From the sequence record PP777464.1: 64,000 nucleotides of DNA, one strand, 5' to 3'. A program made the translations under genes and the position numbers. Shown here piece by piece: positions 31,943 through 56,766 of this stretch (positions are counted from its first letter, which is position 1; every line of letters starts with the position of its first letter). Source of the stretch: Escherichia phage fEgEco12. Under the pieces are notes generated by a model. The model searched no databases. It was given only the letters and a program-made list of their open reading frames with translations, and was not told the DNA's origin.

Positions 31943-31950
31943 AATTCCTC

Positions 31951-33144: not shown

Positions 33145-33159
33145 AACTAAAATCTCCAT

Positions 33160-45804: not shown

Positions 45805-45868
45805 GTACTTGCAAACTATGTTTAAAGGCGTATAATGTTTTACATCGAGAGCGGGAACTCTTCCCGCC
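45805..45868 (+). promoter_or_regulatory. promoter + leader stem-loop module
   Basis: TTGCAA 45809-45814, TATAAT 45831-45836, hairpin GCGGGAACTCTTCCCGC. Confidence 0.65.
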
Positions 45869-46149: not shown

Positions 46150-46178
46150 TTGACTTATTTTGTCAGTACTGGCATAAT
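46150..46178 (+). promoter_or_regulatory. orphan promoter TTGACT-17-CATAAT (rightward)
   Basis: TTGACT 46150-46155, CATAAT 46173-46178; no ORF downstream. Confidence 0.5.
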
Positions 46179-46293
46179 GTATTCATTGGCAGATAAGCCG
46201 TAGCCCATAGGGTGCGGGAGTGTATCTATAGAAAAAGTAGTTTATTACAGTTACAATTGTGCACCCGGTGGGTTAGCTGTTGTCATGGGGTAT
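46179..46293. ncRNA. candidate small RNA locus between convergent promoters
   Basis: contains TAGCCCATAGGGTGC (46201-46215) and its near reverse complement (46260-46276); no ORF. Confidence 0.3.
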
Positions 46294-46322
46294 ATTATGC
46301 CAGTACTTGATAATGCTGTCAA
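46294..46322 (-). promoter_or_regulatory. orphan promoter on minus strand (TTGACA-17-CATAAT), convergent with 46150
   Basis: reverse complement of 46294-46322 gives TTGACA and CATAAT boxes. Confidence 0.5.
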
Positions 46323-46364
46323 TACTTTTTTTTACTATTCAGTACTGAAAACTATTTTTAAAAA

Positions 46365-46396
46365 GTACTTGCAAACTATGTTTAAAGGCGTATAAT
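46365..46396 (+). promoter_or_regulatory. promoter (TTGCAA-16-TATAAT) upstream of a structured non-coding element
   Basis: TTGCAA 46369-46374, TATAAT 46391-46396. Confidence 0.6.
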
Positions 46397-46397
46397 G

Positions 46398-46486
46398 TTT
46401 TACATCAGGACGGGGAACGAAATAAGTAACTTCCCGTTAAGTAGCCCAGGAGTAAGGCACACGAAAAACTCCCCTGATAAAATAGT
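46398..46486 (+). ncRNA. candidate small RNA / structured leader (copy 1 of duplicated element)
   Basis: about 85 nt between two promoters, no ORF; near-identical copy at 56652-56738. Confidence 0.35.
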
Positions 46487-46514
46487 TTGACAAATGTTTT
46501 TAAAAGCGTATAAT
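46487..46514 (+). promoter_or_regulatory. promoter TTGACA-16-TATAAT for gene 46547
   Basis: TTGACA 46487-46492, TATAAT 46509-46514. Confidence 0.6.
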
Positions 46515-46546
46515 ACTTACATCAACTACTGAATGAGGGTTACAAA

Positions 46547-47158
46547 ATGAAAACTATCACTACTACTACTTTCGTTATGGATTTTTCTGAATTGAACGCA
46601 GAACAAAAAACGTCAGCTATCGAACTGGTTCGGGAACGTGAAAAAAACTCAAACGACAATTATTTTTCTGAAAGTGAAATTGAATACTATAAAGAAACAG
46701 TACTACCGGAATATGGCATTAATGACGCTGAAATACAATTCAGTGGCTTTTGGTCCCAGGGTGACGGTGCATCAATCAGTACTGACCACGTTGACGCAGT
46801 GAAGTTTTTACGCAAGGTAAGAGCATTAACTAAGTATCGCTCAATCCGTCACTTGCTGAATGAAGATGATTTGGCGATGAGTGTAAAGCGTTCGCACTCC
46901 CACTACTCGCATGAGAATACTGTAAGCGGGTACATTGAATCGGCTTACACTGATTTAACCGCAAAACAAGAAACGTTAGTTAATGAGCTTGAGGAACTAC
47001 TCACTGAAACTATTCGTGAATTATCCCGCAAGTTGTACCGTGATTTAGAGAATGCATATGAGGATCAATTCACTACTGAAAACATTACGGCACTGATTGA
47101 GGGTAACGAGTATCAATTCAATGTTATTGATGGCGTAGTGGAATCAATCGAATATTAA
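46547..47158 (+). CDS. hypothetical acidic protein (203 aa)
   Basis: ATG with GAGGG RBS. Confidence 0.6.
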   Translation: MKTITTTTFVMDFSELNAEQKTSAIELVREREKNSNDNYFSESEIEYYKETVLPEYGINDAEIQFSGFWSQGDGASISTDHVDAVKFLRKVRALTKYRSIRHLLNEDDLAMSVKRSHSHYSHENTVSGYIESAYTDLTAKQETLVNELEELLTETIRELSRKLYRDLENAYEDQFTTENITALIEGNEYQFNVIDGVVESIEY

Positions 47159-47166
47159 TTTAAAAA

Positions 47167-47230
47167 GTACTTGCAAACTAAGTTTAAAAGCGTATAATAC
47201 TTTATATCGAGAGCGGGAATAGTTCCCGCT
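47167..47230 (+). promoter_or_regulatory. promoter + leader stem-loop module
   Basis: TTGCAA 47171-47176, TATAAT 47193-47198, hairpin AGCGGGAATAGTTCCCGCT. Confidence 0.65.
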
Positions 47231-47250
47231 ACTAATGAGGAATACTACAA

Positions 47251-47415
47251 ATGAATACTTTTACCTTCGCTCAATTGAACGCCCTGGATGTATTGTCTGA
47301 TGCTTTGCGGGATGCAACTGAAAGCGGTTTATTTGACAATGTTGACATTCACCCTGATGTAATTAATAATTTTTGTGATGCTATCGCAGAAGTACTGGAA
47401 GATCTAAAAAAATAA
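47251..47415 (+). CDS. hypothetical small acidic protein (54 aa)
   Basis: ATG after module with GAGGAA RBS; below track cutoff. Confidence 0.45.
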   Translation: MNTFTFAQLNALDVLSDALRDATESGLFDNVDIHPDVINNFCDAIAEVLEDLKK

Positions 47416-47421
47416 TAGAAA

Positions 47422-47485
47422 GTACTTGCAATTAGTTTTCAGTACTGTATAATGGTTTACATCAAAGGGAGAAATGGTTCTCCCT
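47422..47485 (+). promoter_or_regulatory. promoter + leader stem-loop module
   Basis: TTGCAA 47426-47431, TATAAT 47448-47453, hairpin GGGAGAAATGGTTCTCCC. Confidence 0.65.
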
Positions 47486-47503
47486 GGTAATGAGGAAAAT
47501 ACA

Positions 47504-47725
47504 ATGGCTAATATCACTACTCTTTCCCAACTGGAAGCACTGGTTAAATCTATGCGGGAACATGCTGACAAAATCGGCGTACAAGATCCAGCCGTTTGCT
47601 TCTGCGACGAATTGAATGATGATACCCTGGTAATAGCAGAAGTCCAGGACGTTTCTAACTATTCCTCGCGTTACACTGGCGGCGTAGCAAATAAAGGTGA
47701 CTTCTGTTTATACCTTACAAAATAA
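47504..47725 (+). CDS. hypothetical protein (73 aa)
   Basis: ATG after GAGGAAA RBS. Confidence 0.5.
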   Translation: MANITTLSQLEALVKSMREHADKIGVQDPAVCFCDELNDDTLVIAEVQDVSNYSSRYTGGVANKGDFCLYLTK

Positions 47726-47728
47726 CAA

Positions 47729-47760
47729 CGCGGGGAGATAATAACTCCCCGTTACTTTTT
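47729..47760 (+). terminator. intrinsic terminator hairpin CGGGGAG..CTCCCCG + T-run
   Basis: 7-bp stem then TTACTTTTT. Confidence 0.6.
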
Positions 47761-47839
47761 CAGTACTGAATCATTTAATAGACGGATCTCGGCACCCGGT
47801 GGGTTAGTGACAGTTTCGTCTTGATGTAATAATTATGCC

Positions 47840-47876
47840 AGTACTGGATGCACTTGTCAACAACTATTTTTTCAAA
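47840..47876 (-). promoter_or_regulatory. orphan minus-strand promoter (TTGACA-17-CATAAT) reading into the 3' end of gene 47504
   Basis: reverse complement gives TTGACAAGTGCATCCAGTACTGGCATAAT; leader carries the TAACCCACCGGGTGC motif. Confidence 0.45.
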
Positions 47877-47890
47877 TACTTTTTATTAAA

Positions 47891-47950
47891 ATACTTGCAA
47901 TTAGTTTTTAAACGCGTATAATGTTTTGCATAGGGGGAGCGGTTCCCCTG
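47891..47950 (+). promoter_or_regulatory. promoter + leader stem-loop module
   Basis: TTGCAA 47895-47900, TATAAT 47917-47922, hairpin GGGGAGCGGTTCCCC. Confidence 0.65.
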
Positions 47951-47969
47951 GTAACTAAGGAATAAGAAA

Positions 47970-48206
47970 ATGCTTGAACAAATCAAATCAACGTCTGCGA
48001 ATGTAACGGGAACGGTAGTACACTTTACTAGTGATGAATCGCGGGGTGTACCCTATTGTGCTGTACATGTAAACACTGAGGGTAACTACTGGTTTACGGT
48101 TTACGGATCATATTCATTTGGACGGCCTGGGCATCAAAAAATTCTGGATAAAGTACAACCAACGGGTAAAAATATCACGGCTGAAATGTTTTATAAAAAA
48201 TCATAA
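47970..48206 (+). CDS. hypothetical protein (78 aa)
   Basis: ATG after AAGGAA RBS. Confidence 0.55.
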   Translation: MLEQIKSTSANVTGTVVHFTSDESRGVPYCAVHVNTEGNYWFTVYGSYSFGRPGHQKILDKVQPTGKNITAEMFYKKS

Positions 48207-48271
48207 AGTACTTGATAATAGTTTTTAGTACTGTATAATATTTTACATCGCAAGGGGGAGCGGTTCCCCCT
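48207..48271 (+). promoter_or_regulatory. promoter + leader stem-loop module
   Basis: CTTGAT -35, TATAAT 48234-48239, hairpin GGGGGAGCGGTTCCCCC. Confidence 0.6.
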
Positions 48272-48290
48272 GGTAACTAAGGATAATCAA

Positions 48291-48590
48291 ATGAAAATTG
48301 CAATCATCGCCCTGGCTTTATCTGTTTCCTCTTTCGCTGTTAATGCGTCATTAGATGTAAGTAGTGAAAAATTCATTCAGTGCACTGTTGCAATGACCGA
48401 TGAAAGAACTGGCGAGATTGTATTAAAGGATTTAGAGATCCAGCCGGAAGCATTTAAAAACGGCCCGTTCCATGAAGAAGACGAAAACGGTAGCACAACA
48501 ATTTATTATGATGCCAGTACTAAACGCGGTTCGGTCACTGTTATGGATACCGAGAAAGTAACTCATACCGGCGTTATTAATTGCCGTTGA
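48291..48590 (+). CDS. putative secreted protein (99 aa)
   Basis: signal-like N-term MKIAIIALALSVSSFAVNA. Confidence 0.55.
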   Translation: MKIAIIALALSVSSFAVNASLDVSSEKFIQCTVAMTDERTGEIVLKDLEIQPEAFKNGPFHEEDENGSTTIYYDASTKRGSVTVMDTEKVTHTGVINCR

Positions 48591-48611
48591 TAGATACTAC
48601 GGGGTAACATC

Positions 48612-48842
48612 ATGACTAAGCGAATTGTTTTACTTAACGAAAGCAGTACTACACAACTACTTAACGCCGTGCATTATGATATTGAAACGAGCGTTAATCT
48701 TATCAGTACTGTAGTTCTGTTGGACACTGGAAAGGTAGCCAATGATAAAGCGATTGCAGGTATACTAACGGATCTTGTGCCTGGTAGCAGTGCACCAATA
48801 ACGTTAAATGGTAAAGTGTTTAATATTTTACTCACTGATTAA
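48612..48842 (+). CDS. hypothetical protein (76 aa)
   Basis: ATG ORF. Confidence 0.5.
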   Translation: MTKRIVLLNESSTTQLLNAVHYDIETSVNLISTVVLLDTGKVANDKAIAGILTDLVPGSSAPITLNGKVFNILLTD

Positions 48843-48847
48843 GTACA

Positions 48848-48870
48848 TAGCCCACCTGGTGGGCTTTTTT
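48848..48870 (+). terminator. intrinsic terminator AGCCCACC/TGGTGGGCT + T6
   Basis: hairpin + TTTTTTG. Confidence 0.7.
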
Positions 48871-48924
48871 GTTTTTGTAGTATCGTAGTACTGAGATACT
48901 TTGAAAATAGTTTTAAAAAAGTAG

Positions 48925-48952
48925 TTGACATTACCACAGAAAAGCGTAGAAT
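48925..48952 (+). promoter_or_regulatory. promoter TTGACA-16-TAGAAT with long structured leader
   Basis: TTGACA 48925-48930; about 120-nt leader resembling the 46398 element. Confidence 0.5.
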
Positions 48953-49075
48953 GTATTACATCAAGACGGGGAGCACTAAGTAGACCGCCAGTAAGTCGAA
49001 CGAAAAACTGGACACGTCGAGAAAACTTTGATACACTAATAAACGTAAACTAAACTTTAATTGAGGATTTATAAA

Positions 49076-49558
49076 ATGGCTAATGTAAAATCATTCATCA
49101 AAGCACTGGTAGCAAATGAAACTAACGTCGCGGCTGAGATCCTGGCTGAACTGGATAACGATACCATGAAAGCGGTACGCAATAATTTTAACATCGCGTA
49201 CAGTACTGCGAAAGAACTACAAGCAAATAAAGCGGCAGAAATTGAAGCGGCAAAGGCGGCCCGTGAAGCAGAACTACAAGCAACAATCGAAAGTATTCAG
49301 GCGGCAGTAGTTGGATTGGATCTGGAAGTAGTTACAGAGATGGCACAAAAAGCCCTGGCGGTTAAGTATGGGGAAGACAAGCCAGAAGTAAAAGCCAAAA
49401 AATGGATTCAGGAACGCGTAGCGGTAGTACTGGACAACGGGGAAGAATATCTGATTCCGGTGCGTGGTAACTGTATTGCGGTAGTACTGGACGCGATTAA
49501 CTCCAGTGGTATGACTCGCGAGGAATGGATCGAAGCTCATCGCAAAGTTGAAGCATAA
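49076..49558 (+). CDS. hypothetical alanine-rich protein (160 aa)
   Basis: ATG after GAGGA RBS; track start 49061 is TTG. Confidence 0.55.
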   Translation: MANVKSFIKALVANETNVAAEILAELDNDTMKAVRNNFNIAYSTAKELQANKAAEIEAAKAAREAELQATIESIQAAVVGLDLEVVTEMAQKALAVKYGEDKPEVKAKKWIQERVAVVLDNGEEYLIPVRGNCIAVVLDAINSSGMTREEWIEAHRKVEA

Positions 49559-49578
49559 CAATTAAAGTACTGAATCAC

Positions 49579-49607
49579 TAGCCCACCTTAAACAGTGGGC
49601 TTTTTTG
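49579..49607 (+). terminator. intrinsic terminator GCCCAC..GTGGGC + T6
   Basis: hairpin + TTTTTTG. Confidence 0.7.
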
Positions 49608-49623
49608 TGTCTATAGTATTCCA

Positions 49624-49720
49624 GGCCACCAGCACCGCCTAGAAACGATTCTAACGCATTAAACTGATTATCTGATGCATCGCCCTAGCTGGTGGCGTTA
49701 AGGTCGTTAGAATGCGATTG
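49624..49720. repeat. interleaved inverted repeats (CCACCAGC/GCTGGTGG and TTCTAACGC/CGTTAGAATGCG)
   Basis: X-Y-X'-Y' arrangement; contains Chi octamer at 49688-49695. Confidence 0.4.
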
Positions 49721-49756
49721 AGAGCGTTTAAAGTATTTTGCAAAAAGTAATAAAAA

Positions 49757-49790
49757 GTACTTGCACGATTAAGAGATTAGCGTATAATTA
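49757..49790 (+). promoter_or_regulatory. promoter TTGCAC-16-TATAAT
   Basis: TTGCAC 49761-49766, TATAAT 49783-49788. Confidence 0.6.
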
Positions 49791-49833
49791 ATTACATCAA
49801 GGCGAGACACCTTAACTAACTGAGGATATAAAG

Positions 49834-49986
49834 ATGAATACTTATGAACTGGATTGTTTTACTTTACAAGTAATGTCAGTATGCAGTAAGAAAGATTGGT
49901 CATCAAAGGAATTTAAAGCAGTTATCGCGTGTGCAAAACACGGCAAGACTATCAATGAAACGGCATCAATCATTGATAAACTTTAA
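49834..49986 (+). CDS. hypothetical small protein (50 aa)
   Basis: ATG after GAGGA RBS; paralog of 53710-53853; below track cutoff. Confidence 0.45.
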   Translation: MNTYELDCFTLQVMSVCSKKDWSSKEFKAVIACAKHGKTINETASIIDKL

Positions 49987-49994
49987 AAAATAGT

Positions 49995-50023
49995 TTGACA
50001 ATAGTTTTAAGTACTGGCATAAT
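49995..50023 (+). promoter_or_regulatory. promoter TTGACA-17-CATAAT
   Basis: TTGACA 49995-50000, CATAAT 50018-50023. Confidence 0.6.
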
Positions 50024-50056
50024 ACATACATCAACTACTGAATAGGAATTAAAAAA

Positions 50057-50284
50057 ATGGCTATTATCATTACTCGCGTATCTGGTACTACTGGCAACGA
50101 ACAAGTAGTTGCAGTCATTACCAACAAGGAAGGTGCGGAATTGCAAAATGCAATGAATACCTGGGCCGTTAATGAGTTCGGTCAGTGGGCAAGTGTAGCA
50201 TACATTGAAACCTATCAAGTGCCGTCGATTAGTTTAACTGATTTGGGCGTTGAGCGTATCCTTTGCCTGGATGAATTAAATTAA
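50057..50284 (+). CDS. hypothetical protein (75 aa)
   Basis: ATG with AGGAA RBS. Confidence 0.55.
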   Translation: MAIIITRVSGTTGNEQVVAVITNKEGAELQNAMNTWAVNEFGQWASVAYIETYQVPSISLTDLGVERILCLDELN

Positions 50285-50288
50285 AAAA

Positions 50289-50352
50289 GTACTTGCAAAG
50301 TAAATCGAATAAAGTATAATACATTACATCAAGGGGAGAAATGATTCTCCCC
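50289..50352 (+). promoter_or_regulatory. promoter + leader stem-loop module
   Basis: TTGCAA 50293-50298, TATAAT 50315-50320, hairpin GGGGAGAAATGATTCTCCCC. Confidence 0.65.
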
Positions 50353-50369
50353 ACTACAAGGAAACTAAT

Positions 50370-50513
50370 ATGAAAACTTGTCAATGTGGTCAGAAATCTA
50401 TTACGGGTTTAAAGCGGGGCGTTGCTCTTTGCCAGTACCATTATAATTTACAAGTATGGGGTAAAGAATGGGCCGACCAGGTGGAAGCAGCAAAGAAAGC
50501 AAAAAGTAAGTAA
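50370..50513 (+). CDS. small cysteine-containing protein (47 aa; CxC..C..H)
   Basis: ATG after AAGGAAA RBS; below track cutoff. Confidence 0.45.
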   Translation: MKTCQCGQKSITGLKRGVALCQYHYNLQVWGKEWADQVEAAKKAKSK

Positions 50514-50525
50514 AAATATTATCAC

Positions 50526-50561
50526 AGTACTATTGACATAGTTTGATAGTACTGGCATAAT
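50526..50561 (+). promoter_or_regulatory. palindrome-embedded promoter (AGTACTAT-N12-ATAGTACT spanning -35 TTGACA; -10 CATAAT)
   Basis: TTGACA 50533-50538, CATAAT 50556-50561. Confidence 0.6.
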
Positions 50562-50602
50562 AGATTTTATCAAGACAACATATTAATTTAAGGAATACAA
50601 AA

Positions 50603-50926
50603 ATGGCTAAAACTATCATTAACACCGTTTCCCTGGCTGCAATCCGTGCAATCAATGTTGACGGTAAACGTTGGACTGATTCATATGGCAATACTTATCA
50701 TTCTTGTCATGTAAGCGTCGAACTGGATAACGGTTTGAATGATCTGGCGGTTGAATCATTTACTTATGGCTATGAAGATGCATATCAACAAACGGCGTTA
50801 GATCTATTAAAGGAATCAGTAGACGGGCTTAATACTGATGAAACCTCCCTTACTCGTTTGTGCAATGATCTTAATATCCCGTTGCATTGTACTGTACAGA
50901 ATGTTAAACGCAAAAAAGATCTTTAA
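50603..50926 (+). CDS. hypothetical protein (107 aa), RWTDSYGNTYHSC family
   Basis: paralog of 57434-57757. Confidence 0.55.
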   Translation: MAKTIINTVSLAAIRAINVDGKRWTDSYGNTYHSCHVSVELDNGLNDLAVESFTYGYEDAYQQTALDLLKESVDGLNTDETSLTRLCNDLNIPLHCTVQNVKRKKDL

Positions 50927-50940
50927 TTAGCTTTACTTTA

Positions 50941-50972
50941 TGCAGATACTTTGATATAGTGTCTGCATAGGG
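50941..50972 (+). other. intergenic hairpin TATGCAGATACT..AGTGTCTGCATA
   Basis: 11-bp inverted repeat with one mismatch. Confidence 0.45.
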
Positions 50973-51006
50973 GAAAGAAATTAAATTAACTTAAGAGGAA
51001 CGTATA

Positions 51007-51276
51007 ATGAAAAATATCAGTACTTTAATCGACGCAGGTACACATGTTCGGCGGTCTATGGTTGCAACCAGTACTACAAAACAAGTAGCGAGCGGTTATC
51101 TTGTATTTGTGCACGATGGTAAACTACTGGAACGTTCAATCAATTTTGATGTTAAAAACAATTGCCGTTTTATTATCTTTAAGCGTGAGCAATATAAAAT
51201 TGATTTACCAGCAAAGCCCATTAGTGGGGCGTACAACGTGCAATCATTGTTTGAACGTCAACCATACACCTATTAA
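51007..51276 (+). CDS. hypothetical protein (89 aa)
   Basis: ATG with GAGGAA RBS. Confidence 0.55.
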   Translation: MKNISTLIDAGTHVRRSMVATSTTKQVASGYLVFVHDGKLLERSINFDVKNNCRFIIFKREQYKIDLPAKPISGAYNVQSLFERQPYTY

Positions 51277-51327
51277 TCAAAACATCGTTAGCGGTCGATT
51301 CAGGCCGCTTATATTGGGGATTATACC

Positions 51328-51600
51328 ATGAACGTTAATCAAGTACTGAATGAAGTTGAAAGCATCATTAAACCAATGAAACGCATTGATGCTATGTTAA
51401 CACCGGAAGAATGCCGCCTATATGAGCGTTATAGCGTCGAACAAGTCCAGGCGATGGCTATGGCTACCCCAGCCGTTAAACCGCCTGAGAATGCGTTACA
51501 GGACGTTACAGGGGATTATATCATTAATCCAGTACTAGGGAAGATGGCTGCAATCACCGAAGATCAACAAGACTACTTAAGCCAGTACTTAAAAGGTTAA
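51328..51600 (+). CDS. hypothetical protein (90 aa)
   Basis: ATG ORF. Confidence 0.5.
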   Translation: MNVNQVLNEVESIIKPMKRIDAMLTPEECRLYERYSVEQVQAMAMATPAVKPPENALQDVTGDYIINPVLGKMAAITEDQQDYLSQYLKG

Positions 51601-51605
51601 TTAAT

Positions 51606-51815
51606 ATGCTTACTGTACAGGATAAGATCGACATCTTAAAGGTTAATATGTATGTGATTGATGCAGTACCTGGTAAAGTATTTGCATACGATGACACCAC
51701 TGTAAGCGATTTCTACTATAGCCAGGACGTGGGGGATCTTTCTGTACAGTCGGTTATTGAAAACGTAGTTAATGTAGCGTATGAGCATTTACTTTCAAAT
51801 AGTACTTGCAATTAG
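51606..51815 (+). CDS. hypothetical protein (69 aa)
   Basis: ATG 5 nt after upstream stop. Confidence 0.45.
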   Translation: MLTVQDKIDILKVNMYVIDAVPGKVFAYDDTTVSDFYYSQDVGDLSVQSVIENVVNVAYEHLLSNSTCN

Positions 51816-51866
51816 TTTTTAAACGCGTATAATGTTTTACATGAAGGGGAGAAATGATTCTCCCCA
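51802..51866 (+). promoter_or_regulatory. promoter + leader stem-loop module
   Basis: TTGCAA 51806-51811, TATAAT 51828-51833, hairpin GGGGAGAAATGATTCTCCCC. Confidence 0.65.
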
Positions 51867-51884
51867 CTAATTAAGGAATATGAA

Positions 51885-52031
51885 ATGAAAGCATCAAAAA
51901 AGAGTAATACTAAGAAAGCACGTTCACCTTTCGCTGGGGTATTCCCTTTACGTTTCGTTGATGAAGTAGTTTCCTACCCGCCGGGCCTTACTCCTGAGAT
52001 GGTAGAAAGTTTGCGTAAATCTAAAAAATAG
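51885..52031 (+). CDS. hypothetical small basic protein (48 aa)
   Basis: ATG after AAGGAA RBS; below track cutoff. Confidence 0.45.
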   Translation: MKASKKSNTKKARSPFAGVFPLRFVDEVVSYPPGLTPEMVESLRKSKK

Positions 52032-52094
52032 TACTTGCAATTAGTTTTTAGTACTGTATAATGTTTTACATGAAGGGGAGAAATGATTCTCCCC
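52031..52094 (+). promoter_or_regulatory. promoter + leader stem-loop module
   Basis: TTGCAA 52035-52040, TATAAT 52057-52062, hairpin GGGGAGAAATGATTCTCCCC. Confidence 0.65.
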
Positions 52095-52112
52095 AATAAC
52101 AGGAGAATCAAA

Positions 52113-52265
52113 ATGAAACAATACAACGCTCGGTTTGATGTTACTATCGGTAACGGCAAAGGTCAATTCTCTTTCAGTACTCGCAAAAGTTATACAGAAA
52201 ACTTCCTGCGTAATTGTGCACTGACCGCCGCACAAATTAAACATTACTTTCAGGCTAAAAAATGA
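52113..52265 (+). CDS. hypothetical small protein (50 aa)
   Basis: ATG after AGGAGAA RBS. Confidence 0.5.
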   Translation: MKQYNARFDVTIGNGKGQFSFSTRKSYTENFLRNCALTAAQIKHYFQAKK

Positions 52266-52351
52266 AATCATTAGCTTATTACAGTTCGGCCCTGGTCGGT
52301 GCATTGATCGCGGCGTTGTTAGTAACCTATCTATTCTTTATGGTGATTTAA
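52262..52351 (+). CDS. tiny hydrophobic peptide (29 aa)
   Basis: ATGA overlap; single predicted TM helix; speculative. Confidence 0.25.
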   Translation: MKSLAYYSSALVGALIAALLVTYLFFMVI

Positions 52352-52495
52352 ATGAATCCAACAGGTTTAAACTATAAAAGTTGTTCGGCGTTTACGAAAG
52401 CAAATAAAGCGAATGCACGTAAAGCGAAAGTACAGGAATACATCAAGCAAGGCATGACGCGAAAGGCGGCGATTCTAAAAGCTAAAAATAAATGA
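52352..52495 (+). CDS. small basic protein (47 aa)
   Basis: TAAATG overlap; speculative. Confidence 0.3.
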   Translation: MNPTGLNYKSCSAFTKANKANARKAKVQEYIKQGMTRKAAILKAKNK

Positions 52496-52501
52496 AAAAA
52501 G

Positions 52502-52533
52502 TGGTTGACTCCGGTCAGCCATTTTGCTATTAT
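52502..52533 (+). terminator. composite terminator-promoter (TGGTTGACTCCGGTCAGCCA; -10 TATTAT)
   Basis: right-arm variant of the left-arm hairpin family. Confidence 0.6.
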
Positions 52534-52622
52534 ATATTCATTGAGAGATAGCTCACTAGCCCACAGGGTGCATAAGTGTATCTATTATATAAGTATTGAG
52601 TACTGAAAACTATTTTTAAAAA
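52534..52622 (+). ncRNA. candidate short transcript carrying TAGCCCACAGGGTGCATAAGTGTATC motif
   Basis: between composite element and next promoter; no ORF. Confidence 0.3.
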
Positions 52623-52687
52623 GTACTTGCAAACTATCTCAATAAGCGTATAATGTTTTACATCGAAAGGGGAAACGGTTTCCCCTG
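52623..52687 (+). promoter_or_regulatory. promoter + leader stem-loop module
   Basis: TTGCAA 52627-52632, TATAAT 52649-52654, hairpin GGGGAAACGGTTTCCCC. Confidence 0.65.
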
Positions 52688-52705
52688 GTAATAAGGAAAC
52701 AAATC

Positions 52706-53047
52706 ATGACTATCTCAATTGCTCAATCTAACTTTGAAAATGAAATCATCGCCCAGGCACTGCGTTTAAATGATGGTCGGGCCGAAATTAATTACGGTTT
52801 CAATTCAGGCGGTTGTGAAAAATATCAGTACTTTGTAACGGCTGATGGCGGTGTCCTGGGTATCAATACAGTTATTGTAAACATACAGAAAATTAATTTC
52901 AATGATCCAGACGATAGCCAGTTTTACATCACTGGCGTAGACGTGAACTATGAGGATGACTCACTAACTGATGATCACACTGGCGAGCGGTTAGAAAGTG
53001 CATACGGTGAAGATGATTATCAGTCCGGTCCAGAAGATTTCGAATAA
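52706..53047 (+). CDS. hypothetical acidic protein (113 aa)
   Basis: ATG after AAGGAAA RBS. Confidence 0.55.
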   Translation: MTISIAQSNFENEIIAQALRLNDGRAEINYGFNSGGCEKYQYFVTADGGVLGINTVIVNIQKINFNDPDDSQFYITGVDVNYEDDSLTDDHTGERLESAYGEDDYQSGPEDFE

Positions 53048-53057
53048 TATAAAAAAA

Positions 53058-53121
53058 TAGTTTGACAATAGATTATAGTACTGTATAATAGTTTACATCA
53101 AGGGGAGAAAAACTTCTCCCC
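53058..53121 (+). promoter_or_regulatory. promoter + leader stem-loop module
   Basis: TTGACA 53062-53067, TATAAT 53084-53089, hairpin GGGGAGAAAAACTTCTCCCC. Confidence 0.65.
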
Positions 53122-53143
53122 ACTAACAGAGAGAAAAAACAAA

Positions 53144-53356
53144 ATGGCTAATATCTGCACTGTACTGAAAAATGCAAAACAAGTTTTATTTTCTGATCAC
53201 GATCATTTAAACAAGGATATTACTGGCGTTCGGAATATCAAAGATGTAAAAAGTGTTATGGGTATCTATTGCAATATGAAACGTGTTGGAACGTTCGGCG
53301 ACAAAGTACTATACCAGGCAGGGGATTACAATTTTACACTGACTATCATTAACTAA
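53144..53356 (+). CDS. hypothetical protein (70 aa)
   Basis: ATG after GAGAGA RBS. Confidence 0.5.
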   Translation: MANICTVLKNAKQVLFSDHDHLNKDITGVRNIKDVKSVMGIYCNMKRVGTFGDKVLYQAGDYNFTLTIIN

Positions 53357-53368
53357 AAATATTATCAC

Positions 53369-53404
53369 AGTACTATTGACATAGTTTGATAGTACTGACA
53401 TAAT
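53369..53404 (+). promoter_or_regulatory. palindrome-embedded promoter (near-duplicate of 50526-50561)
   Basis: TTGACA 53376-53381, CATAAT 53399-53404. Confidence 0.6.
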
Positions 53405-53439
53405 AACTTTTATCAACTACACTACTAAGGAATTAAAAA

Positions 53440-53619
53440 ATGGCTATCATCGCAAAAACTGAAATCGTTGGTCTGGATTCTATCATCATGACGTTTGAAG
53501 ATCAAAAAGGTATGTATGTAGTTTCATATGGTGATTATGTTCGGGAGTATGAAACGGTAGACGAAGCCTTTGAAAGTTATATTCGCCAGGTGAATAAAGC
53601 ATACGACGACTACCGCTAA
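53440..53619 (+). CDS. hypothetical small acidic protein (59 aa)
   Basis: ATG after AAGGAA RBS; below track cutoff. Confidence 0.45.
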   Translation: MAIIAKTEIVGLDSIIMTFEDQKGMYVVSYGDYVREYETVDEAFESYIRQVNKAYDDYR

Positions 53620-53630
53620 AATATATTACC

Positions 53631-53665
53631 AGTACTATTGACATAGATTGATAGTACTGTATAAT
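53631..53665 (+). promoter_or_regulatory. palindrome-embedded promoter variant
   Basis: TTGACA 53638-53643, TATAAT 53660-53665. Confidence 0.6.
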
Positions 53666-53709
53666 AAGTTTTATAAACAGTAGTTAACTTAACCTAAGAG
53701 AGAAATAAA

Positions 53710-53853
53710 ATGATCGCACTGGATTCATTCATCGACGCAGTACTGGCAAAAACTGGCGAGGATCTGACCGCAGAACAATACGCGATGATCGAGCAATGTC
53801 AGCAAAACGGTAAATCGGTGAAAGATACTGTTAAGATTATCCGCAAGATGTAA
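53710..53853 (+). CDS. hypothetical small protein (47 aa)
   Basis: ATG after AGAGAGAAA RBS; paralog of 49834-49986. Confidence 0.45.
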   Translation: MIALDSFIDAVLAKTGEDLTAEQYAMIEQCQQNGKSVKDTVKIIRKM

Positions 53854-53859
53854 TATTAT

Positions 53860-53890
53860 AGCCCACTGGTTAACGCTGGTGGGCTTTAAT
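53860..53890 (+). terminator. hairpin GCCCAC..GTGGGC containing a Chi octamer
   Basis: inverted repeat after stop; weak T-run; GCTGGTGG 53875-53882. Confidence 0.45.
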
Positions 53891-53958
53891 CATTTACCCT
53901 ATACAATGCCAGTACTAAACCGTTTATCTCGTTAGAATGCGTTACAGGACGTTTGACA

Positions 53959-54156
53959 ATGATTAGCATGAAATCAGTACAAAAACAAATAGAAACATTA
54001 TCAAAAATTAAACGTAAACAGTACTCGTTAGAATATACAATCAATGGTAACTATCATCTAATGAAAGAGAATAATTTCATTGTCATTGATGAATCATTGC
54101 AAGTTATTAGTATAGTACTGAAAGCATTAATCAATGACAGAAAAAAATTAAAATAA
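53959..54156 (+). CDS. hypothetical protein (65 aa), uncertain
   Basis: AT-rich ORF without a clear RBS; track start is TTG. Confidence 0.3.
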   Translation: MISMKSVQKQIETLSKIKRKQYSLEYTINGNYHLMKENNFIVIDESLQVISIVLKALINDRKKLK

Positions 54157-54160
54157 TCTA

Positions 54161-54189
54161 TTGACAATATCCTCCAGTACTGGCATAAT
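54161..54189 (+). promoter_or_regulatory. orphan promoter TTGACA-17-CATAAT
   Basis: TTGACA 54161-54166, CATAAT 54184-54189; leader carries AACCCATAGGGTGCAC. Confidence 0.5.
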
Positions 54190-54250
54190 ACTTACATCAA
54201 GACGAGAACGTCACTAACCCATAGGGTGCACAAATGTAACTATATAATAT
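54190..54250 (+). ncRNA. candidate short transcript with ACCCATAGGGTGC motif
   Basis: no ORF downstream. Confidence 0.3.
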
Positions 54251-54251
54251 C

Positions 54252-54324
54252 GATCAATAAATGATCAAAAAAGTACTGGATCAATTTAGCATAAGGCGTA
54301 TAATTCTGATCAATTCTTGATCAA
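54252..54324 (+). promoter_or_regulatory. cluster of five GATCAA repeats around a promoter (TATAAT 54299-54304)
   Basis: GATCAA at 54252, 54263, 54279, 54308, 54319; two pairs spaced 11 bp. Confidence 0.5.
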
Positions 54325-54485
54325 AGGCAATATACGCAGTTGAATTTATATAGACAGTACAAAGGCGTTACTATTCGTGGTAATGCTGGTGGATATGTAG
54401 TATCATATGGTTTGAATAAGATAAACACTAGTAGTATTATTGTAGCATTACAGTACTATAGTATTTTTATAATGAGGTTAAAATA

Positions 54486-54743
54486 ATGGCAGTAGGATAC
54501 GCGAAAGACGGGGCCGAACAAGACGAGATTCATGCAGTGATTCAGGCCGCCGTTAACCACGCTAGAAAGCAAATTAACGCACAAAGAGAATCACTTGTAC
54601 ATTGCCTCGACTGCGGCGATAAAATCCCTGAGAATCGACGCCAGGCCGTTATAGGGTGCATGTATTGTATTACTTGCCAGGAGGATCATGATAGTACTTT
54701 TAAAAGAGATCCGCGTAATTGTTGGCATAGATCTATGAGATAA
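54486..54743 (+). CDS. TraR/DksA-family C4 zinc-finger protein
   Basis: CLDCGDKIPENRR...CMYCITCQ C-x2-C-x17-C-x2-C motif. Confidence 0.7.
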   Translation: MAVGYAKDGAEQDEIHAVIQAAVNHARKQINAQRESLVHCLDCGDKIPENRRQAVIGCMYCITCQEDHDSTFKRDPRNCWHRSMR

Positions 54744-54748
54744 AAAGT

Positions 54749-54776
54749 ATTGACAGTACTGAAAGATAGTGTATAA
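54749..54776 (+). promoter_or_regulatory. promoter TTGACA-16-TATAAT
   Basis: TTGACA 54749-54754, TATAAT 54771-54776. Confidence 0.6.
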
Positions 54777-54806
54777 TGTTTTATATCTTAACTGAGGATA
54801 GTAATC

Positions 54807-55163
54807 ATGGGAATACAACATATCACGCGTACTACTGACAATGGCGAGATCACTGGCTATCAAGTACAGGGCAAAGTAGCACAATTGCAGTACTGGTTTG
54901 TTAAACGTGGAATCATTGCACCGGATCTTGATTATGACCGTGTAGCGTTTATTGATTCTCTTTATGTTGATCCTGATAGTCGGGGCAATGGTGAAGGTAA
55001 CGAATTAATGAATGCCTTTATTGATGCCGCCGATGATTCAGATTGTATCATCTTAGAATGCGATACGGGAGAAGATAACGCCTTTAATCTTAAAGAATGG
55101 TACGAAGGTTTCGGATTCGAGGTATTGATAGATAGTGAATATCCTATCATGATTTTATCATAG
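54807..55163 (+). CDS. GNAT-like N-acetyltransferase (small)
   Basis: VDPDSRGNGEGNELMNAF resembles GNAT motif A; C-terminal Y..GF. Confidence 0.5.
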   Translation: MGIQHITRTTDNGEITGYQVQGKVAQLQYWFVKRGIIAPDLDYDRVAFIDSLYVDPDSRGNGEGNELMNAFIDAADDSDCIILECDTGEDNAFNLKEWYEGFGFEVLIDSEYPIMILS

Positions 55164-55166
55164 TAC

Positions 55167-55223
55167 TTGCATTTAGTTTTCAGTACTGTTATAGTACTTG
55201 CATCAAGGGGAAACATCTTCCCC
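55167..55223 (+). promoter_or_regulatory. promoter + leader stem-loop module
   Basis: TTGCAT, TATAGT, hairpin GGGGAAACATCTTCCCC. Confidence 0.6.
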
Positions 55224-55241
55224 TACTAAGAGGAAATAAAA

Positions 55242-55430
55242 ATGGAAAACTTATCAAGTATTTTAGTACAAGATGATTTCGGTAATCCTGGAAGTGCTAT
55301 CATTGTTCGGGGCAATAAAGCAACGTTTGTTATTGCTGGTGGACCCGTACAGCGTAGCATTAAAAATAATGCTGTTACCATTAATAATGTACGCTATCGC
55401 TTAGATAAAGAATTAATTCATAAACTGTAA
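55242..55430 (+). CDS. hypothetical protein (62 aa)
   Basis: ATG after AGAGGAAA RBS. Confidence 0.5.
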   Translation: MENLSSILVQDDFGNPGSAIIVRGNKATFVIAGGPVQRSIKNNAVTINNVRYRLDKELIHKL

Positions 55431-55457
55431 TATTAATTTAATAGAGGATAACAATAA

Positions 55458-55781
55458 ATGTACATTCATACTACTGTCACAAAGGAAGTCCGTTGCCAGT
55501 TCGAAAGTATTCCGGGCGTATGTTTCATCACTGGTACGTTTTCCCCTGGTGATCGTGATAATCCAGTACTGTTACAGTTACGCCATCCATTATGGGATAA
55601 AGCATTTGATCTGCCGTTGAATGAATTCGCAACCACTGCTGATAAGTACATTAAAAATATTCGCGAGAATGATTGCCTATTCATTAATGCTTTTAGTGAT
55701 GCCGCGTTAAGTGAGATCCATGCTGTATTGGTTGCAATCATGGAATCAATGGAGAAAACTATATTCAAACAAGGTGAATAA
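55458..55781 (+). CDS. hypothetical protein (107 aa)
   Basis: ATG after GAGGA RBS. Confidence 0.55.
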   Translation: MYIHTTVTKEVRCQFESIPGVCFITGTFSPGDRDNPVLLQLRHPLWDKAFDLPLNEFATTADKYIKNIRENDCLFINAFSDAALSEIHAVLVAIMESMEKTIFKQGE

Positions 55782-55786
55782 AAACT

Positions 55787-55846
55787 ATTGACAATGCAAT
55801 CCAGTACTGTATAATAGTTTACATGAAGGGGAGAAATGATTCTCCC
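55787..55846 (+). promoter_or_regulatory. promoter + leader stem-loop module
   Basis: TTGACA 55787-55792, TATAAT 55808-55813, hairpin GGGGAGAAATGATTCTCCCC. Confidence 0.65.
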
Positions 55847-55864
55847 CACTAAGAGGAAAGAAAA

Positions 55865-56077
55865 ATGCAAGGTCAACTAATCGTTCGTAAATGGTCTGAT
55901 ACTAACGAAAAACCGTGGGATGTACAATACATCGCCCCAAATGGTGAATCCAGATATCAACCAGGTGTAACGCATAGTACTGAGCAATTCGCCGCCGCTC
56001 ATCGCGAACGTCTGTTACAATCAATGCAGCAAGGTTCCGGTGAAAAATTCATTCAGGATCATTGGCTGAAAGATTAA
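55865..56077 (+). CDS. hypothetical protein (70 aa)
   Basis: ATG after AGAGGAAAG RBS. Confidence 0.55.
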   Translation: MQGQLIVRKWSDTNEKPWDVQYIAPNGESRYQPGVTHSTEQFAAAHRERLLQSMQQGSGEKFIQDHWLKD

Positions 56078-56085
56078 AAAAGTAC

Positions 56086-56143
56086 TTGCACAGTACTGAA
56101 TAAAGTGTATAATGTTTTATATCGGAAGGGGAATAGTTCCCCT
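56086..56143 (+). promoter_or_regulatory. promoter + leader stem-loop module
   Basis: TTGCAC 56086-56091, TATAAT 56108-56113, hairpin AGGGGAATAGTTCCCCT. Confidence 0.65.
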
Positions 56144-56164
56144 CCTAACAAAGAGGAAAGTATA

Positions 56165-56338
56165 ATGGTCCAGGTAGAATTAACAGTACTGAAAGATCTG
56201 TTTTATCGGATTGGTACTACTGGCGAATATCCGAAGGGTGATAATGCAAAACTTTACGTATCACTCGACTTATGGCAACGCGAACAATTAGCAACGGCCT
56301 GGCGTAAAGGCAAAGCAGATCGAGAGGTGAAAGCATGA
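56165..56338 (+). CDS. hypothetical small protein (57 aa)
   Basis: ATG after AGAGGAAAG RBS. Confidence 0.5.
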   Translation: MVQVELTVLKDLFYRIGTTGEYPKGDNAKLYVSLDLWQREQLATAWRKGKADREVKA

Positions 56339-56484
56339 AAGAATTCTTATTTGAAGTAGTGTTTCAAGGTGTCGGTAATAACCAACTGATTCGATCAAGT
56401 GGTTATAATGTTAACCAGGCATGGAATAACATTAAACAAATGTACCCGAACGCTATCACATATCGCAACCCGAAAGAAGTTTAA
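56335..56484 (+). CDS. hypothetical small protein (49 aa)
   Basis: ATGA overlap; below track cutoff. Confidence 0.4.
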   Translation: MKEFLFEVVFQGVGNNQLIRSSGYNVNQAWNNIKQMYPNAITYRNPKEV

Positions 56485-56498
56485 AAATATTTGAAAAA

Positions 56499-56532
56499 GG
56501 GATTGACTCCGGTCAGTCCCTTTGCTATTATA
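56499..56532 (+). terminator. composite terminator-promoter (GGGATTGACTCCGGTCAGTCCC; -10 TATTAT)
   Basis: hairpin + TTTGC; TTGACT inside stem. Confidence 0.65.
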
Positions 56533-56622
56533 TACGCATAGAAACAAATTAGCCCACAGGGTGCATAAATGTATCTATTGTTTGCTGGTGGCTAGTACTG
56601 AAAACTATTTTTAAAAAAGTAC
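56533..56622 (+). ncRNA. candidate short transcript with TAGCCCACAGGGTGCATAAATGTATC motif and Chi octamer
   Basis: no ORF; GCTGGTGG 56584-56591. Confidence 0.3.
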
Positions 56623-56650
56623 TTGCATTGTACTTAGAATCAAGTATAAT
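56623..56650 (+). promoter_or_regulatory. promoter TTGCAT-16-TATAAT
   Basis: TTGCAT 56623-56628, TATAAT 56645-56650. Confidence 0.6.
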
Positions 56651-56651
56651 G

Positions 56652-56738
56652 TTTTACATCAGGACGGGGAACGAAATAAGTAACCCCGTTAAGTAGTCCA
56701 GGAGTAAGACATACGAAAAACTCCCCTGATAAAATAGT
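56652..56738 (+). ncRNA. candidate small RNA / structured leader (copy 2 of duplicated element)
   Basis: near-identical to 46398-46486; no ORF. Confidence 0.35.
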
Positions 56739-56766
56739 TTGACAATAGAAAGTAAACGAGTATAAT
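56739..56766 (+). promoter_or_regulatory. promoter TTGACA-16-TATAAT
   Basis: TTGACA 56739-56744, TATAAT 56761-56766. Confidence 0.6.

Follow-up and report, generated by a model that had tools for sequence, protein, structure and literature searches.

Why should a jumbo coliphage keep, immediately downstream of its promoters, three copies of a short element without evident coding capacity? The element was noticed in a 64,000-nt window of Escherichia phage fEgEco12 (PP777464.1; the window denotes this whole stretch), which belongs to Asteriusvirus, the 121Q/PBECO4-like jumbo coliphages, and a sequence-only reading proposed that it could be a small RNA, a riboregulatory leader or a protein-binding site. 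The region lies inside the ~21-kb direct terminal repeat of the Asteriusvirus genome, which is an array of cassettes made up of a sigma70 promoter, a 5′ hairpin and a small gene.

The near-exact repeat is confirmed: copy 1 (46398-46486) and copy 2 (56652-56738) agree at 84 of 89 positions, differing by three substitutions and one 2-nt indel in the first of two predicted hairpins (hairpin 1), and promoter consensus locates two flanking promoters at each, as had been claimed. The near-identical stretches run from 46402 to 46481 and from 56656 to 56733. The third copy, originally drawn at 48953-49060, is a genuine diverged copy but a shorter one; its homology is confined to 48958-49032 (core, 48975-49016), it has no hairpin 1, and the remainder is ordinary leader. 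By consensus, each copy begins at the transcription start of a sigma70-type promoter (P1), and copies 1 and 2 end shortly 5′ of a second promoter (P2); behind copy 3, the second-promoter candidates are weak 9/12 promoter-like sites only. The core pattern AGTAAGNCNNACGAAAANCT occurs three times in the window, compared to 0.04 occurrences expected by chance, and a covariance model of the core (R1) detects exactly these three sites in the window with scores of 54 to 59 bits, where the next best site scores 8.8 bits.

Table 1. Features at and around the three copies. Promoters, start sites and RNA ends in the window are assigned by consensus only; bit scores are those of covariance model R1.
Feature	Position	Strand	Details
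P1 of copy 1	46369..46396	+	TTGCAA-16-TATAAT; AT-rich upstream region; consensus only
Predicted start of copy 1 P1	A46402/A46404	+	consensus only
Copy 1 RNA element (W1)	46404..46478	+	three-way junction; MFE -19.4 kcal/mol, z -2.27; 54.1 bits
Copy 1 outer helix	46404-46409/46473-46478	+	predicted fold
Copy 1 hairpin 1	46410-46437	+	predicted fold
Copy 1 linker	46438-46448	+	contains AAGUAG; predicted fold
Copy 1 hairpin 2	46449-46472	+	loop 46453-46468; predicted fold
P2 of copy 1	46487..46514	+	TTGACA-16-TATAAT, 12/12; consensus
Gene downstream of copy 1 P2	46547-47158		203 aa, phrog_5162; short-leader mRNA predicted from P2
Intrinsic terminator upstream of copy 3 promoter	48849-48875
Copy 3 promoter	48925..48952	+	TTGACA-16-TAGAAT; consensus
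Copy 3 (W3)	48958..49032	+	no hairpin 1; 57.3 bits
Copy 3 outer helices	48960-48964/49028-49032 and 48965-48968/49015-49018	+	predicted
Copy 3 AAGUAG	48978-48983	+
Copy 3 hairpin 2	48987-49012	+	loop 48992-49007; predicted
Gene behind copy 3	49076-49558		160 aa, phrog_27871; 117-nt leader, copy 3 its 5′ part
Terminator closing the unit of the copy 3 gene	49580-49610
Further promoter-like site	56503-56531		~120 nt upstream of copy 2 P1
P1 of copy 2	56623..56650	+	TTGCAT-16-TATAAT; weak -35 (too weak for the promoter scan; read directly from the sequence), perfect -10, AT-rich upstream region
Copy 2 RNA element (W2)	56658..56730	+	MFE -21.0 kcal/mol, z -3.17; 59.1 bits
Copy 2 outer helix	56658-56663/56725-56730	+	predicted fold
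Copy 2 hairpin 1	56664-56689	+	predicted fold
Copy 2 AAGUAG	56691-56696	+
Copy 2 hairpin 2	56701-56724	+	loop 56705-56720; predicted fold
P2 of copy 2	56739..56766	+	TTGACA-16-TATAAT, 12/12; consensus
Gene predicted to be driven by copy 2 P2	56800-57075		91 aa, phrog_14947

The core consists of an AAGUAG linker and a 5-bp hairpin (hairpin 2) that closes 16 nt of loop, UAAG.C..ACGAA. Set 7 nt upstream of the loop, the linker does not vary among the 14 distinct sequences compared, three of which are the window copies, and most of the nineteen invariant columns fall within the linker and the loop. Across the same sequences, the hairpin 2 stem is 94.3% paired, compared to 19-47% for slid controls; three of its five pairs are changed on both sides (A-U versus U-A at 7:7), G-U pairs are tolerated, and none of 500 shuffles reached the observed score. 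RNAalifold independently predicts the same hairpin. Moreover, promoter-proximal matches to the sequence pattern all have 4-5 stem pairs, whereas chance matches elsewhere have 0-2, with one exception that reaches 4 when wobbles are counted. The covariation of hairpin 2 across phage families, its tolerance of G-U pairs and the invariance of its loop and linker support a structured RNA on the transcribed strand. Both of the internal complementarities described earlier are present, and both appear in the minimum-free-energy folds (z = -2.3 and -3.2). The predicted folds also base-pair the first transcribed nucleotides in copies 1-3, and in copies 1 and 2 the outer helix encloses two hairpins; copy 3, K64-1, Hallingskeid and LIMEzero have a single hairpin. 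Taken alone and compared with shuffled flanks, the outer helix does not reach significance (p from 0.002 to 0.8), and it is not evident in T7.

The element had also been described as free of open reading frames. A 31-aa, ATG-started frame (46395-46490) does span copy 1, and the element carries hypothetical-protein annotations in some database records, but the conclusion that it lacks coding capacity holds because the ATG sits in the -10 hexamer and precedes the transcription start, and the 2-nt indel breaks the frame in copy 2. Further, the ATG has no Shine-Dalgarno sequence, other carriers have additional indels in hairpin 1, TAA and TAG triplets are conserved in two of the three frames, and no open reading frame is conserved across the element copies. 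A small encoded peptide is accordingly an exceedingly improbable explanation.

Motif searches find the element far beyond this phage. The motif is present in 261 phage records, which are mainly T7-like genomes of ~40 kb; T7-like records with the motif number more than 250, and additional T7-like phages also carry it. Homologues occur in Rak2-like jumbo phages (a 366-kb IMG/VR contig, Munch, Hallingskeid, K64-1 and Muenster), in rV5-like and phi92-like phages (Justusliebigvirus outra and muut, Vequintavirinae A73 and A7_1) and in LIMEzero. The carriers have a host in common and few genes in common. The motif is absent from the E. coli genomes and the GTDB bacterial genomes searched. Rfam 15 gives no window match at the gathering threshold and, near copy 1 at E<=10, a single 15-bit match to a plastid motif; no known RNA family emerged as similar in sequence.

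In all carriers examined, promoter consensus puts the motif right after a sigma70-type early promoter, 20-65 nt downstream of its start and on the transcribed strand. A second sigma70-type promoter follows it in copies 1 and 2, T7, Kayfunavirus-like phages, L013, Hallingskeid and K64-1, and lies no more than 60 nt away in nearly all carriers. Homology between carriers begins at the P1 start site and stops at the P2 -35, regardless of the downstream gene, and the same element is found with different P1 promoters. On sequence grounds, the element is a member of a widespread promoter-bounded module, which the sequence-only reading did not recognise, and not a local duplication.

The most familiar carrier is T7, where the motif occupies positions 552-587, between A1 (annotated +1 at 498) and A2 (+1 at 626), and scores 56.0 bits with model R1. 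T7 and the window share the AAGUAG-N7-G(A)UAAG-N4-ACGAA core with a compensated 5-bp stem, its placement in the leader of the upstream of two early sigma70 promoters, and a ~120-nt promoter spacing, which recurs in the window at 56503/56623/56739. In contrast, the T7 segment has one extra loop nucleotide (loops are 16-17 nt across the family), different 5′ hairpins and no clear enclosing helix, and its hairpin ends 1 nt from the A2 -35. Judged by its core and score, T7 552-587 is a homologue of the element and not merely an analogue. The A1 leader is among the most used transcription templates; a literature search found no function assigned to the A1-A2 segment, and we know of none.

The proximity to A2 bears on whether the element acts as DNA. 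In T7-like phages the hairpin lies 1-3 nt from the next -35 (TTGACA), which leaves some room for a DNA-level or promoter-coupled role: an UP-like or upstream activating region of the downstream promoter, a regulator site, or a hairpin pause that parks P1 polymerases over P2. A T7 A-tract read from the sequence, ACGAAAAAC, falls at about -46 to -38 of A2, the location of the proximal UP subsite, and the second promoter is near in almost every carrier. However, the hairpin and the following -35 are anywhere from 1 to about 60 nt apart among carriers, copy 3 has only a weak promoter-like site, and compensatory changes that include G-T pairs are unexpected for a duplex protein site. Because of the compensatory stem changes and the variable distance, a double-stranded DNA protein site is disfavoured, and a DNA-level signal as a whole is very unlikely.

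Between the two RNA proposals, a leader fits best because the element begins at the promoter +1, has no terminator and, in copy 3, supplies the 5′ portion of an mRNA leader. A terminated, free-standing small-RNA gene is unsupported: none of the three copies has an intrinsic terminator at its 3′ end or any terminator-like site before the next gene. A trans-acting RNA could arise differently, if P1 mainly makes an ~80-100-nt RNA that is freed by processing or by a block at an occupied P2, and that acts early in infection as a decoy, titrating a host protein or RNA or diverting it. Several observations suit this proposal. Besides the promoter that serves the element, a second serves the downstream gene; no fewer than five different genes are found behind the element, implying selection independent of them; its loop nucleotides are invariant; and in T7, RNase III cleavage at R0.3 frees the A1 leader fragment. 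Moreover, in Eneladusvirus and Mimasvirus (BF, fHe-Yen9-04, GAP32), the syntenic P1-RNA-P2 slot holds a different, highly structured 160-nt RNA (z = -4.3). Against it, no recognisable processing site follows the element, copy 3 continues into an mRNA leader without a strong second promoter, and no complementary target was identified. We consider a trans-acting RNA rather unlikely.

A less specific explanation is that the element only stabilises 5′ ends in a generic way, or travels along with mobile promoter cassettes; its similarity across phages would then be due to recent recombination at promoters they share, and it would have no specific partner. Coliphage copies are about 90% identical, and much of this identity reflects recent transfer and not selection. 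A 5′ hairpin also follows nearly every promoter between 44 and 62 kb. A paired 5′ end hinders 5′-end-dependent decay, and the element resembles ompA-type 5′ stabiliser hairpins in the pairing of its first transcribed nucleotides in copies 1-3. However, such stabilisers need no specific sequence, which leaves the invariant linker and loop unexplained; a generic hairpin would not preserve 19 positions, most of them unpaired, without variation as its stem is altered by compensation, a pattern that extends over Asteriusvirus, Alcyoneusvirus, Erwinia and Pantoea phages, Studiervirinae and Melnykvirinae; and the ordinary 5′ hairpins of the region have loops unrelated to the element's. The cassette argument has a precedent in the promoter-early stem-loop (PeSL) cassettes of T4-like phages (PMC2839356, PMC4122927), in which units of a strong sigma70 promoter and a stem-loop delimit small, variable early genes and provide the joints for recombination; the element likewise has its breakpoints within promoters, at the P1 start and the P2 -35, and behaves as a joint for modular shuffling. 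PeSL stem-loops, in contrast, are promoter-linked terminators whose loops are not conserved, whereas the element's hairpin lies downstream of the start site, lacks a U-tract, is not a terminator joined to an early promoter, and is most conserved in its loop. Overall, a generic stabiliser or passenger is improbable.

The element is probably a conserved non-coding, structured 5′-leader RNA module of the earliest host-polymerase transcripts, a family that includes the T7 A1-A2 segment, with host-factor docking as its likely role. In this model, the host sigma70 RNA polymerase would transcribe the element from the upstream promoter of a tandem early pair; in jumbo-phage copies, a helix pairing the first transcribed nucleotides with the 3′ side would enclose the core, while hairpin 1 would be optional; and the module would travel between phage families as a promoter-bounded cassette. 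The different structured RNA in the syntenic slot of Eneladusvirus and Mimasvirus suggests that this slot is maintained for the sake of an RNA product. The unpaired nucleotides would present a docking surface for a host component, possibly the polymerase, on the first transcripts of infection. Docking is the most likely function, as we infer from a compensated stem, invariant unpaired nucleotides and carriers that share a host but few genes. At a minimum, the fold may additionally sequester the 5′ end against 5′-end-dependent decay.

The favoured version of docking, offered tentatively, is that the element acts in cis on the transcribing RNA polymerase as a put-like processivity or anti-pausing element. 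The HK022 put RNA remains anchored to the polymerase and acts without any phage protein (PMC8632103); like the element, it is promoter-proximal, about 65-80 nt long and part of early phage transcripts made by host RNA polymerase. Put is a double hairpin, as are copies 1 and 2, whereas copy 3 and several homologues have only one hairpin. Model R1 indicates no sequence relationship, scoring at most 7.4 bits across HK022 25000-38000 (13 kb, the presumed early control region, within which putL and putR were not located), compared to 52-60 bits for members. Put lets RNA polymerase pass terminators in cis, in a manner that depends on the beta' zinc-binding region. For the element, antitermination fits poorly because the copy 3 transcription unit is closed by a good intrinsic terminator right behind its gene, and a second promoter that bypasses the element makes it harder to see it as essential in cis for the downstream gene.

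Lambda nut and rrn leaders offer another comparison: these are leader RNA signals in operons that are early or strongly expressed, and they share with the element a 5-bp hairpin and a loop segment rich in A (GAAAA). T7-like carriers have a boxA further downstream, as in nut/rrn antitermination leaders, whereas the window has none: CGCTCTTTAACAA-like boxA sequences with at most two mismatches number 6 in the window against 7.5 expected, none on the plus strand or near a copy. Further, lambda boxB has a GNRA-like pentaloop where the element's loop is 16-17 nt, and the carriers do not include any lambdoid phage.

A functional motif would rank among the few RNA signals common to unrelated virulent phage families, namely Autographiviridae, Rak2-like jumbo phages, and rV5-like and phi92-like myoviruses, and would suggest a host target that they share and engage ahead of the first phage protein. 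Its presence in T7 makes this directly testable with T7 genetics, in vitro transcription from A1 and existing RNA-seq. For annotators, the motif marks the earliest host-transcribed region, and its distribution indicates that phage families exchange promoter-bounded non-coding modules besides genes. A bolder and rather doubtful proposal is that AAGUAG and its hairpin form a protein-independent RNA device, found in first transcripts from T7 to 350-kb jumbo phages, that captures or reprograms a host machine; candidates are a host defence or RNA-binding factor and the transcribing RNA polymerase, which would gain speed or processivity in a put-like manner. A put-like gain, if true, would be relevant to transcription-driven genome entry, and such a device would mean that a functional element in the T7 A1 leader has been overlooked for decades.

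The roughly 85-nt element is real, repeated and non-coding, because two of its copies are nearly identical, searches recover all three specifically, promoters flank them, no terminator-like site follows them and the overlapping reading frame is broken. In particular, copies 1 and 2 are identical at 84 of 89 positions, their first hairpins differing by a 2-nt indel; this bears out the near-exact duplication claimed by the sequence-only reading. The diverged third copy that it proposed has the core (an AAGUAG linker and hairpin 2) without the first hairpin. The core pattern has three matches in the window (0.04 expected), and R1, a covariance model of the core, finds exactly copies 1-3 at 54-59 bits, with the next best match at 8.8 bits. 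The sites beside the copies that had been called as promoters fit the sigma70 consensus, with a weak -35 hexamer (TTGCAT) in copy 2's P1, the promoter whose predicted transcript begins with the element. No terminator-like site lies 3' of any of the three copies, contradicting the suggestion of a terminated small-RNA gene. A 31-aa ORF over copy 1 begins within the -10 hexamer and loses its frame in copy 2, which rules out a coding reading and agrees with the lack of coding capacity first noted. The proteins of the downstream genes have sub-threshold Pfam matches only, and every one falls in a PHROGs family of unknown function.

As RNA, copies 1 and 2 have minimum-free-energy folds that are three-way junctions (-19.4 kcal/mol, z -2.3 and -21.0 kcal/mol, z -3.2, respectively), where +1 to +6 (AUCAGG) pairs with CCUGAU in an outer helix, hairpin 1 forms from ACGGGGAA and UUCCCGU, the linker UUAAGUAGCCCA is single-stranded, and hairpin 2 pairs GGAG with CUCC around the loop UAAGGCACACGAAAAA, in which an NNAC tetraloop closed by C-G is predicted. 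Covariation, which the sequence-only reading proposed to check across the three copies, supports hairpin 2, whose 5-bp stem is 94.3% paired over 14 distinct sequences. Across these sequences, pair 16-36 is A-U in seven and U-A in seven, pairs 14-38 and 15-37 change jointly from C-G to G-C, and pair 13-39 is G-U, G-C or A-U in 10 and unpaired in four. Shifting the stem partners by 1-3 columns leaves only 19-47% paired, none of the shuffled controls attains the observed covariation score, and RNAalifold predicts the same hairpin. Pattern matches away from promoters have 0-2 stem pairs, with one exception that has four, counting wobbles. A protein-binding site in duplex DNA, another early suggestion, fails to account for the compensatory stem changes. 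Moreover, the 14 sequences share 19 invariant columns, most of which are unpaired: in the linker, AAGUAG and a C, and in the loop, U-A-A-G, C and A-C-G-A-A. A generic stabiliser hairpin leaves these unpaired positions unaccounted for.

Further, a helix between the 5' end and the stretch directly after hairpin 2 recurs with differing sequences (see Table), including a C-G to G-C flip in a metagenomic relative of Erwinia phage Hallingskeid. Compared with shuffled 3' flanks, its duplex energy yields p values of 0.002-0.8, significant for Hallingskeid and Munch only, and T7 has no such helix; the outer helix is likely, though not proven, to be real in jumbo phages. Hairpin 1 is optional: copies 1 and 2, 121Q, A73, outra, L013 (another carrier) and Munch retain it, with indels and G-U changes, and copy 3, K64-1, Hallingskeid and LIMEzero lack it.

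Table. Coordinates and outer-helix pairings of the element, its relatives and neighbouring features
Feature	Genome	Coordinates	Outer helix or sequence
Copy 1	window	46402-46481	CAGGA/CCCUG
Copy 2	window	56656-56733	CAGGA/CCCUG
Copy 3	window	48958-49032	GACG/CGUC
Relative	L013		GCGGC/GUCGC
Relative	Munch		CGGC/GCCG
Relative	Hallingskeid		CAUC/GAUG + CGG/CCG
Relative	K64-1		GCGAC/GUUGC
Relative	LIMEzero		ACCGAA/UUCGGU
Motif	T7	552-587	
Extra promoter and non-coding stretch	K64-1 (L019)	20160-20340	
Extra promoter and non-coding stretch	Muenster (L020)	5430-5610	
Ribosome-binding region, conserved gene	window	49046-49078	ACTAAACTTTAATTGAGGATTTATAAAATG
Ribosome-binding region, conserved gene	GAP32 (L023)	4556-4586	TTTAACTTTTAAGAAGGTATATAATCATG
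Slot RNA	BF (L021)	1512-1672	
Slot RNA	fHe-Yen9-04 (L022)	~815-975	
Slot RNA	GAP32 (L023)	~4290-4440	
Tandem promoter-like sites	window	56503-56531, 56623-56650, 56739-56766	
T7 A1-like initial transcribed sequence	window	44700-44720, 45840-45859, 47203-47221	ACATCGAGAGCGGGAAC
AGTACT/CAGTACTG sites (examples)	window	46344-46351, 47757-47764, 53072-53079	
D9/D15 repeats with converging promoters	window	46150-46322	
Other D9/D15 repeats	window	44262-44300, 52557-52595, 54215-54253, 56550-56588, 44097/44313/47783	
Minus-strand promoters reading into D9/D15-type repeats	window	47860-47832, near 44367	

Relatives of the copy-1/2 type occur at ~90% identity in unrelated coliphages, namely the Justusliebigvirus phages outra, muut and EmilieFrey and the Vequintavirinae A73, W70, A7_1 and A5-4. 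In those inspected (outra, muut, A73 and A7_1), the element is flanked by two promoters, the P1 sequences and downstream genes differ, and identity runs from the P1 start to the -35 of P2, the second promoter just 3' of the element, or just past it. Other Rak2-like jumbo phages (a 366-kb IMG/VR contig, Salmonella phage Munch, Klebsiella phages K64-1 and Muenster, and Hallingskeid) have diverged orthologues of copy 3 in a terminal repeat or early region, each upstream of a gene positioned like window gene 49076, as judged for K64-1 and Muenster by synteny and annotation alone. In these two phages, the element is separated from the conserved gene by an extra promoter and ~190 nt of non-coding sequence with element-like words (CCAGTAAGCATGG, CACGAAAAAC). 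The conserved gene 3' of copy 3 has a ribosome-binding region similar to the T7 gene 10 leader (TTAACTTTAAGAAGG).

The pattern AAGTAG-N7-GTAAG-N4-ACGAA also finds T7-like podophages, including Pantoea phage LIMEzero, several ~40-kb contigs and a 37,555-bp IMG/VR contig whose core segment is the same as in the Yersinia phage phiA1122 record. In the annotated T7 record, the motif lies between promoters A1 (+1 at 498) and A2 (+1 at 626) and ends 1 nt ahead of the A2 -35. Across T7-like phages the hairpin ends just 1-3 nt from the next -35, so the element may have a promoter-linked role. A 42-nt Kayfunavirus-type core matches 261 phage records, mostly ~40-kb T7-like genomes from Escherichia, Salmonella, Klebsiella, Enterobacter, Cronobacter, Yersinia and other hosts; one of the 261 is a Melnykvirinae member. 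A metagenome scan with the strict pattern gained just a few new variants. The motif has no match across 5,426 E. coli genomes and just two, stem-less and by chance, in a 185,579-species bacterial and archaeal genome set, ruling out a host or prophage origin. Rfam has no family at gathering threshold in the window and no match to copy 1 at E<=10, apart from a 15-bit plastid motif near it. The literature searched, on Asteriusvirus promoters, jumbo-phage terminal repeats and the T7 early leader, gave no description of the element; the T7 sequence dates back to the 1980s, and older T7 work, outside this search, may hold an earlier description.

About 35 Asteriusvirus genomes (121Q/PBECO4-like jumbo coliphages of 320-385 kb) match a 261-nt query around copy 1 at 97-100% identity. 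In vB_Ec-M-J, the region matching copy 1 falls within the annotated 21.5-kb direct terminal repeat, and the three copies are 3.7, 6.75 and 14.2 kb from the left end. Between 44 and 62 kb the window is densely packed with cassettes, nearly all on the + strand. Each runs from an AT-rich upstream stretch through TTGCAA or TTGACA, a 16-17-nt spacer and TATAAT to a start site at ACATC, followed by a 5' hairpin rich in GC and then by a small ORF with its Shine-Dalgarno sequence. Three tandem promoter-like sites ~120 nt apart are spaced like T7 A1, A2 and A3 (498, 626 and 750); the element occupies the second inter-promoter interval here and the first in T7. Several window promoters also have an initial transcribed sequence like that of T7 A1 (ATCGAGAGGGAC).

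The AGTACT palindrome occurs 290 times in the window (21.6 expected from base composition) and CAGTACTG 73 times (0.7 expected); these sites are scattered across coding and non-coding DNA and are incorporated in promoter spacers (AGTACTGTATAAT) and upstream regions (AAAGTACTTGCAA). A second promoter-proximal non-coding repeat family is present (TAGCCCAYAGGGTGC... and GCACCCGGTGGGTTAG; families D9 and D15). Just upstream of copy 1, + and - strand promoters converge ~120 bp apart over two such repeats, and these repeats with opposing promoters may be sense/antisense small RNAs. Munch, K64-1 and Muenster encode a protein kinase in a terminal repeat or early region, vB_Ec-M-J encodes a DksA-like zinc-finger protein in its terminal repeat, and K64-1 and Muenster also have YeeU-like and YafQ-like proteins in this part of the genome; this jumbo-phage early gene set is a T7-like host-takeover repertoire adjoining a T7-like leader motif.

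The main rival reading is that the element is a released decoy RNA. In its favour, three other phages (Serratia phage BF, Yersinia phage fHe-Yen9-04 and Cronobacter phage GAP32) have a syntenic P1-RNA-P2 slot, upstream of a homologue of window gene 49076, in which another RNA, ~160 nt long and highly structured (in BF, MFE -48.5 kcal/mol, z -4.3), stands in place of the element. This suggests that the slot is maintained for the sake of an RNA product. By eye, stem positions differ between the three RNAs, and Rfam returns sub-threshold microRNA-type noise only, with none reaching gathering threshold.

The carriers have enterobacterial hosts in common but few genes, and the RNA would be present ahead of any phage protein. 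The best explanation for the conserved unpaired nucleotides is therefore a surface on which a host component docks. The favoured partner would be the transcribing RNA polymerase, by analogy with the HK022 put RNA, a promoter-proximal double hairpin of ~65 nt that is anchored to polymerase and is anti-pausing and antiterminating (PMC8632103). Against an antitermination role, a good terminator closes copy 3's unit, and most copies are followed by a second promoter that bypasses the element. At the sequence level, homology to put is rejected, since R1 reaches at most 7.4 bits over 13 kb of HK022 (25000-38000). Similarly, a nut-like reading fails on the lack of a boxA in the window and on the wrong loop size; CsrA (GGA) or Shine-Dalgarno mimicry is rejected because copy 3 and other families do not conserve the GGA and AGGAG words found in copies 1 and 2; and base-pairing between the loop and tRNA T-loops, or between the linker and short mRNA leaders, is dropped because it spans just 5-6 nt at non-conserved positions. 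Overall, the evidence fits a conserved module in RNA of the transcribed strand, an early-leader signal of phages whose potential is real but unproven; host RNA polymerase would make it as infection begins, and phage families would swap it as a promoter-bounded unit.
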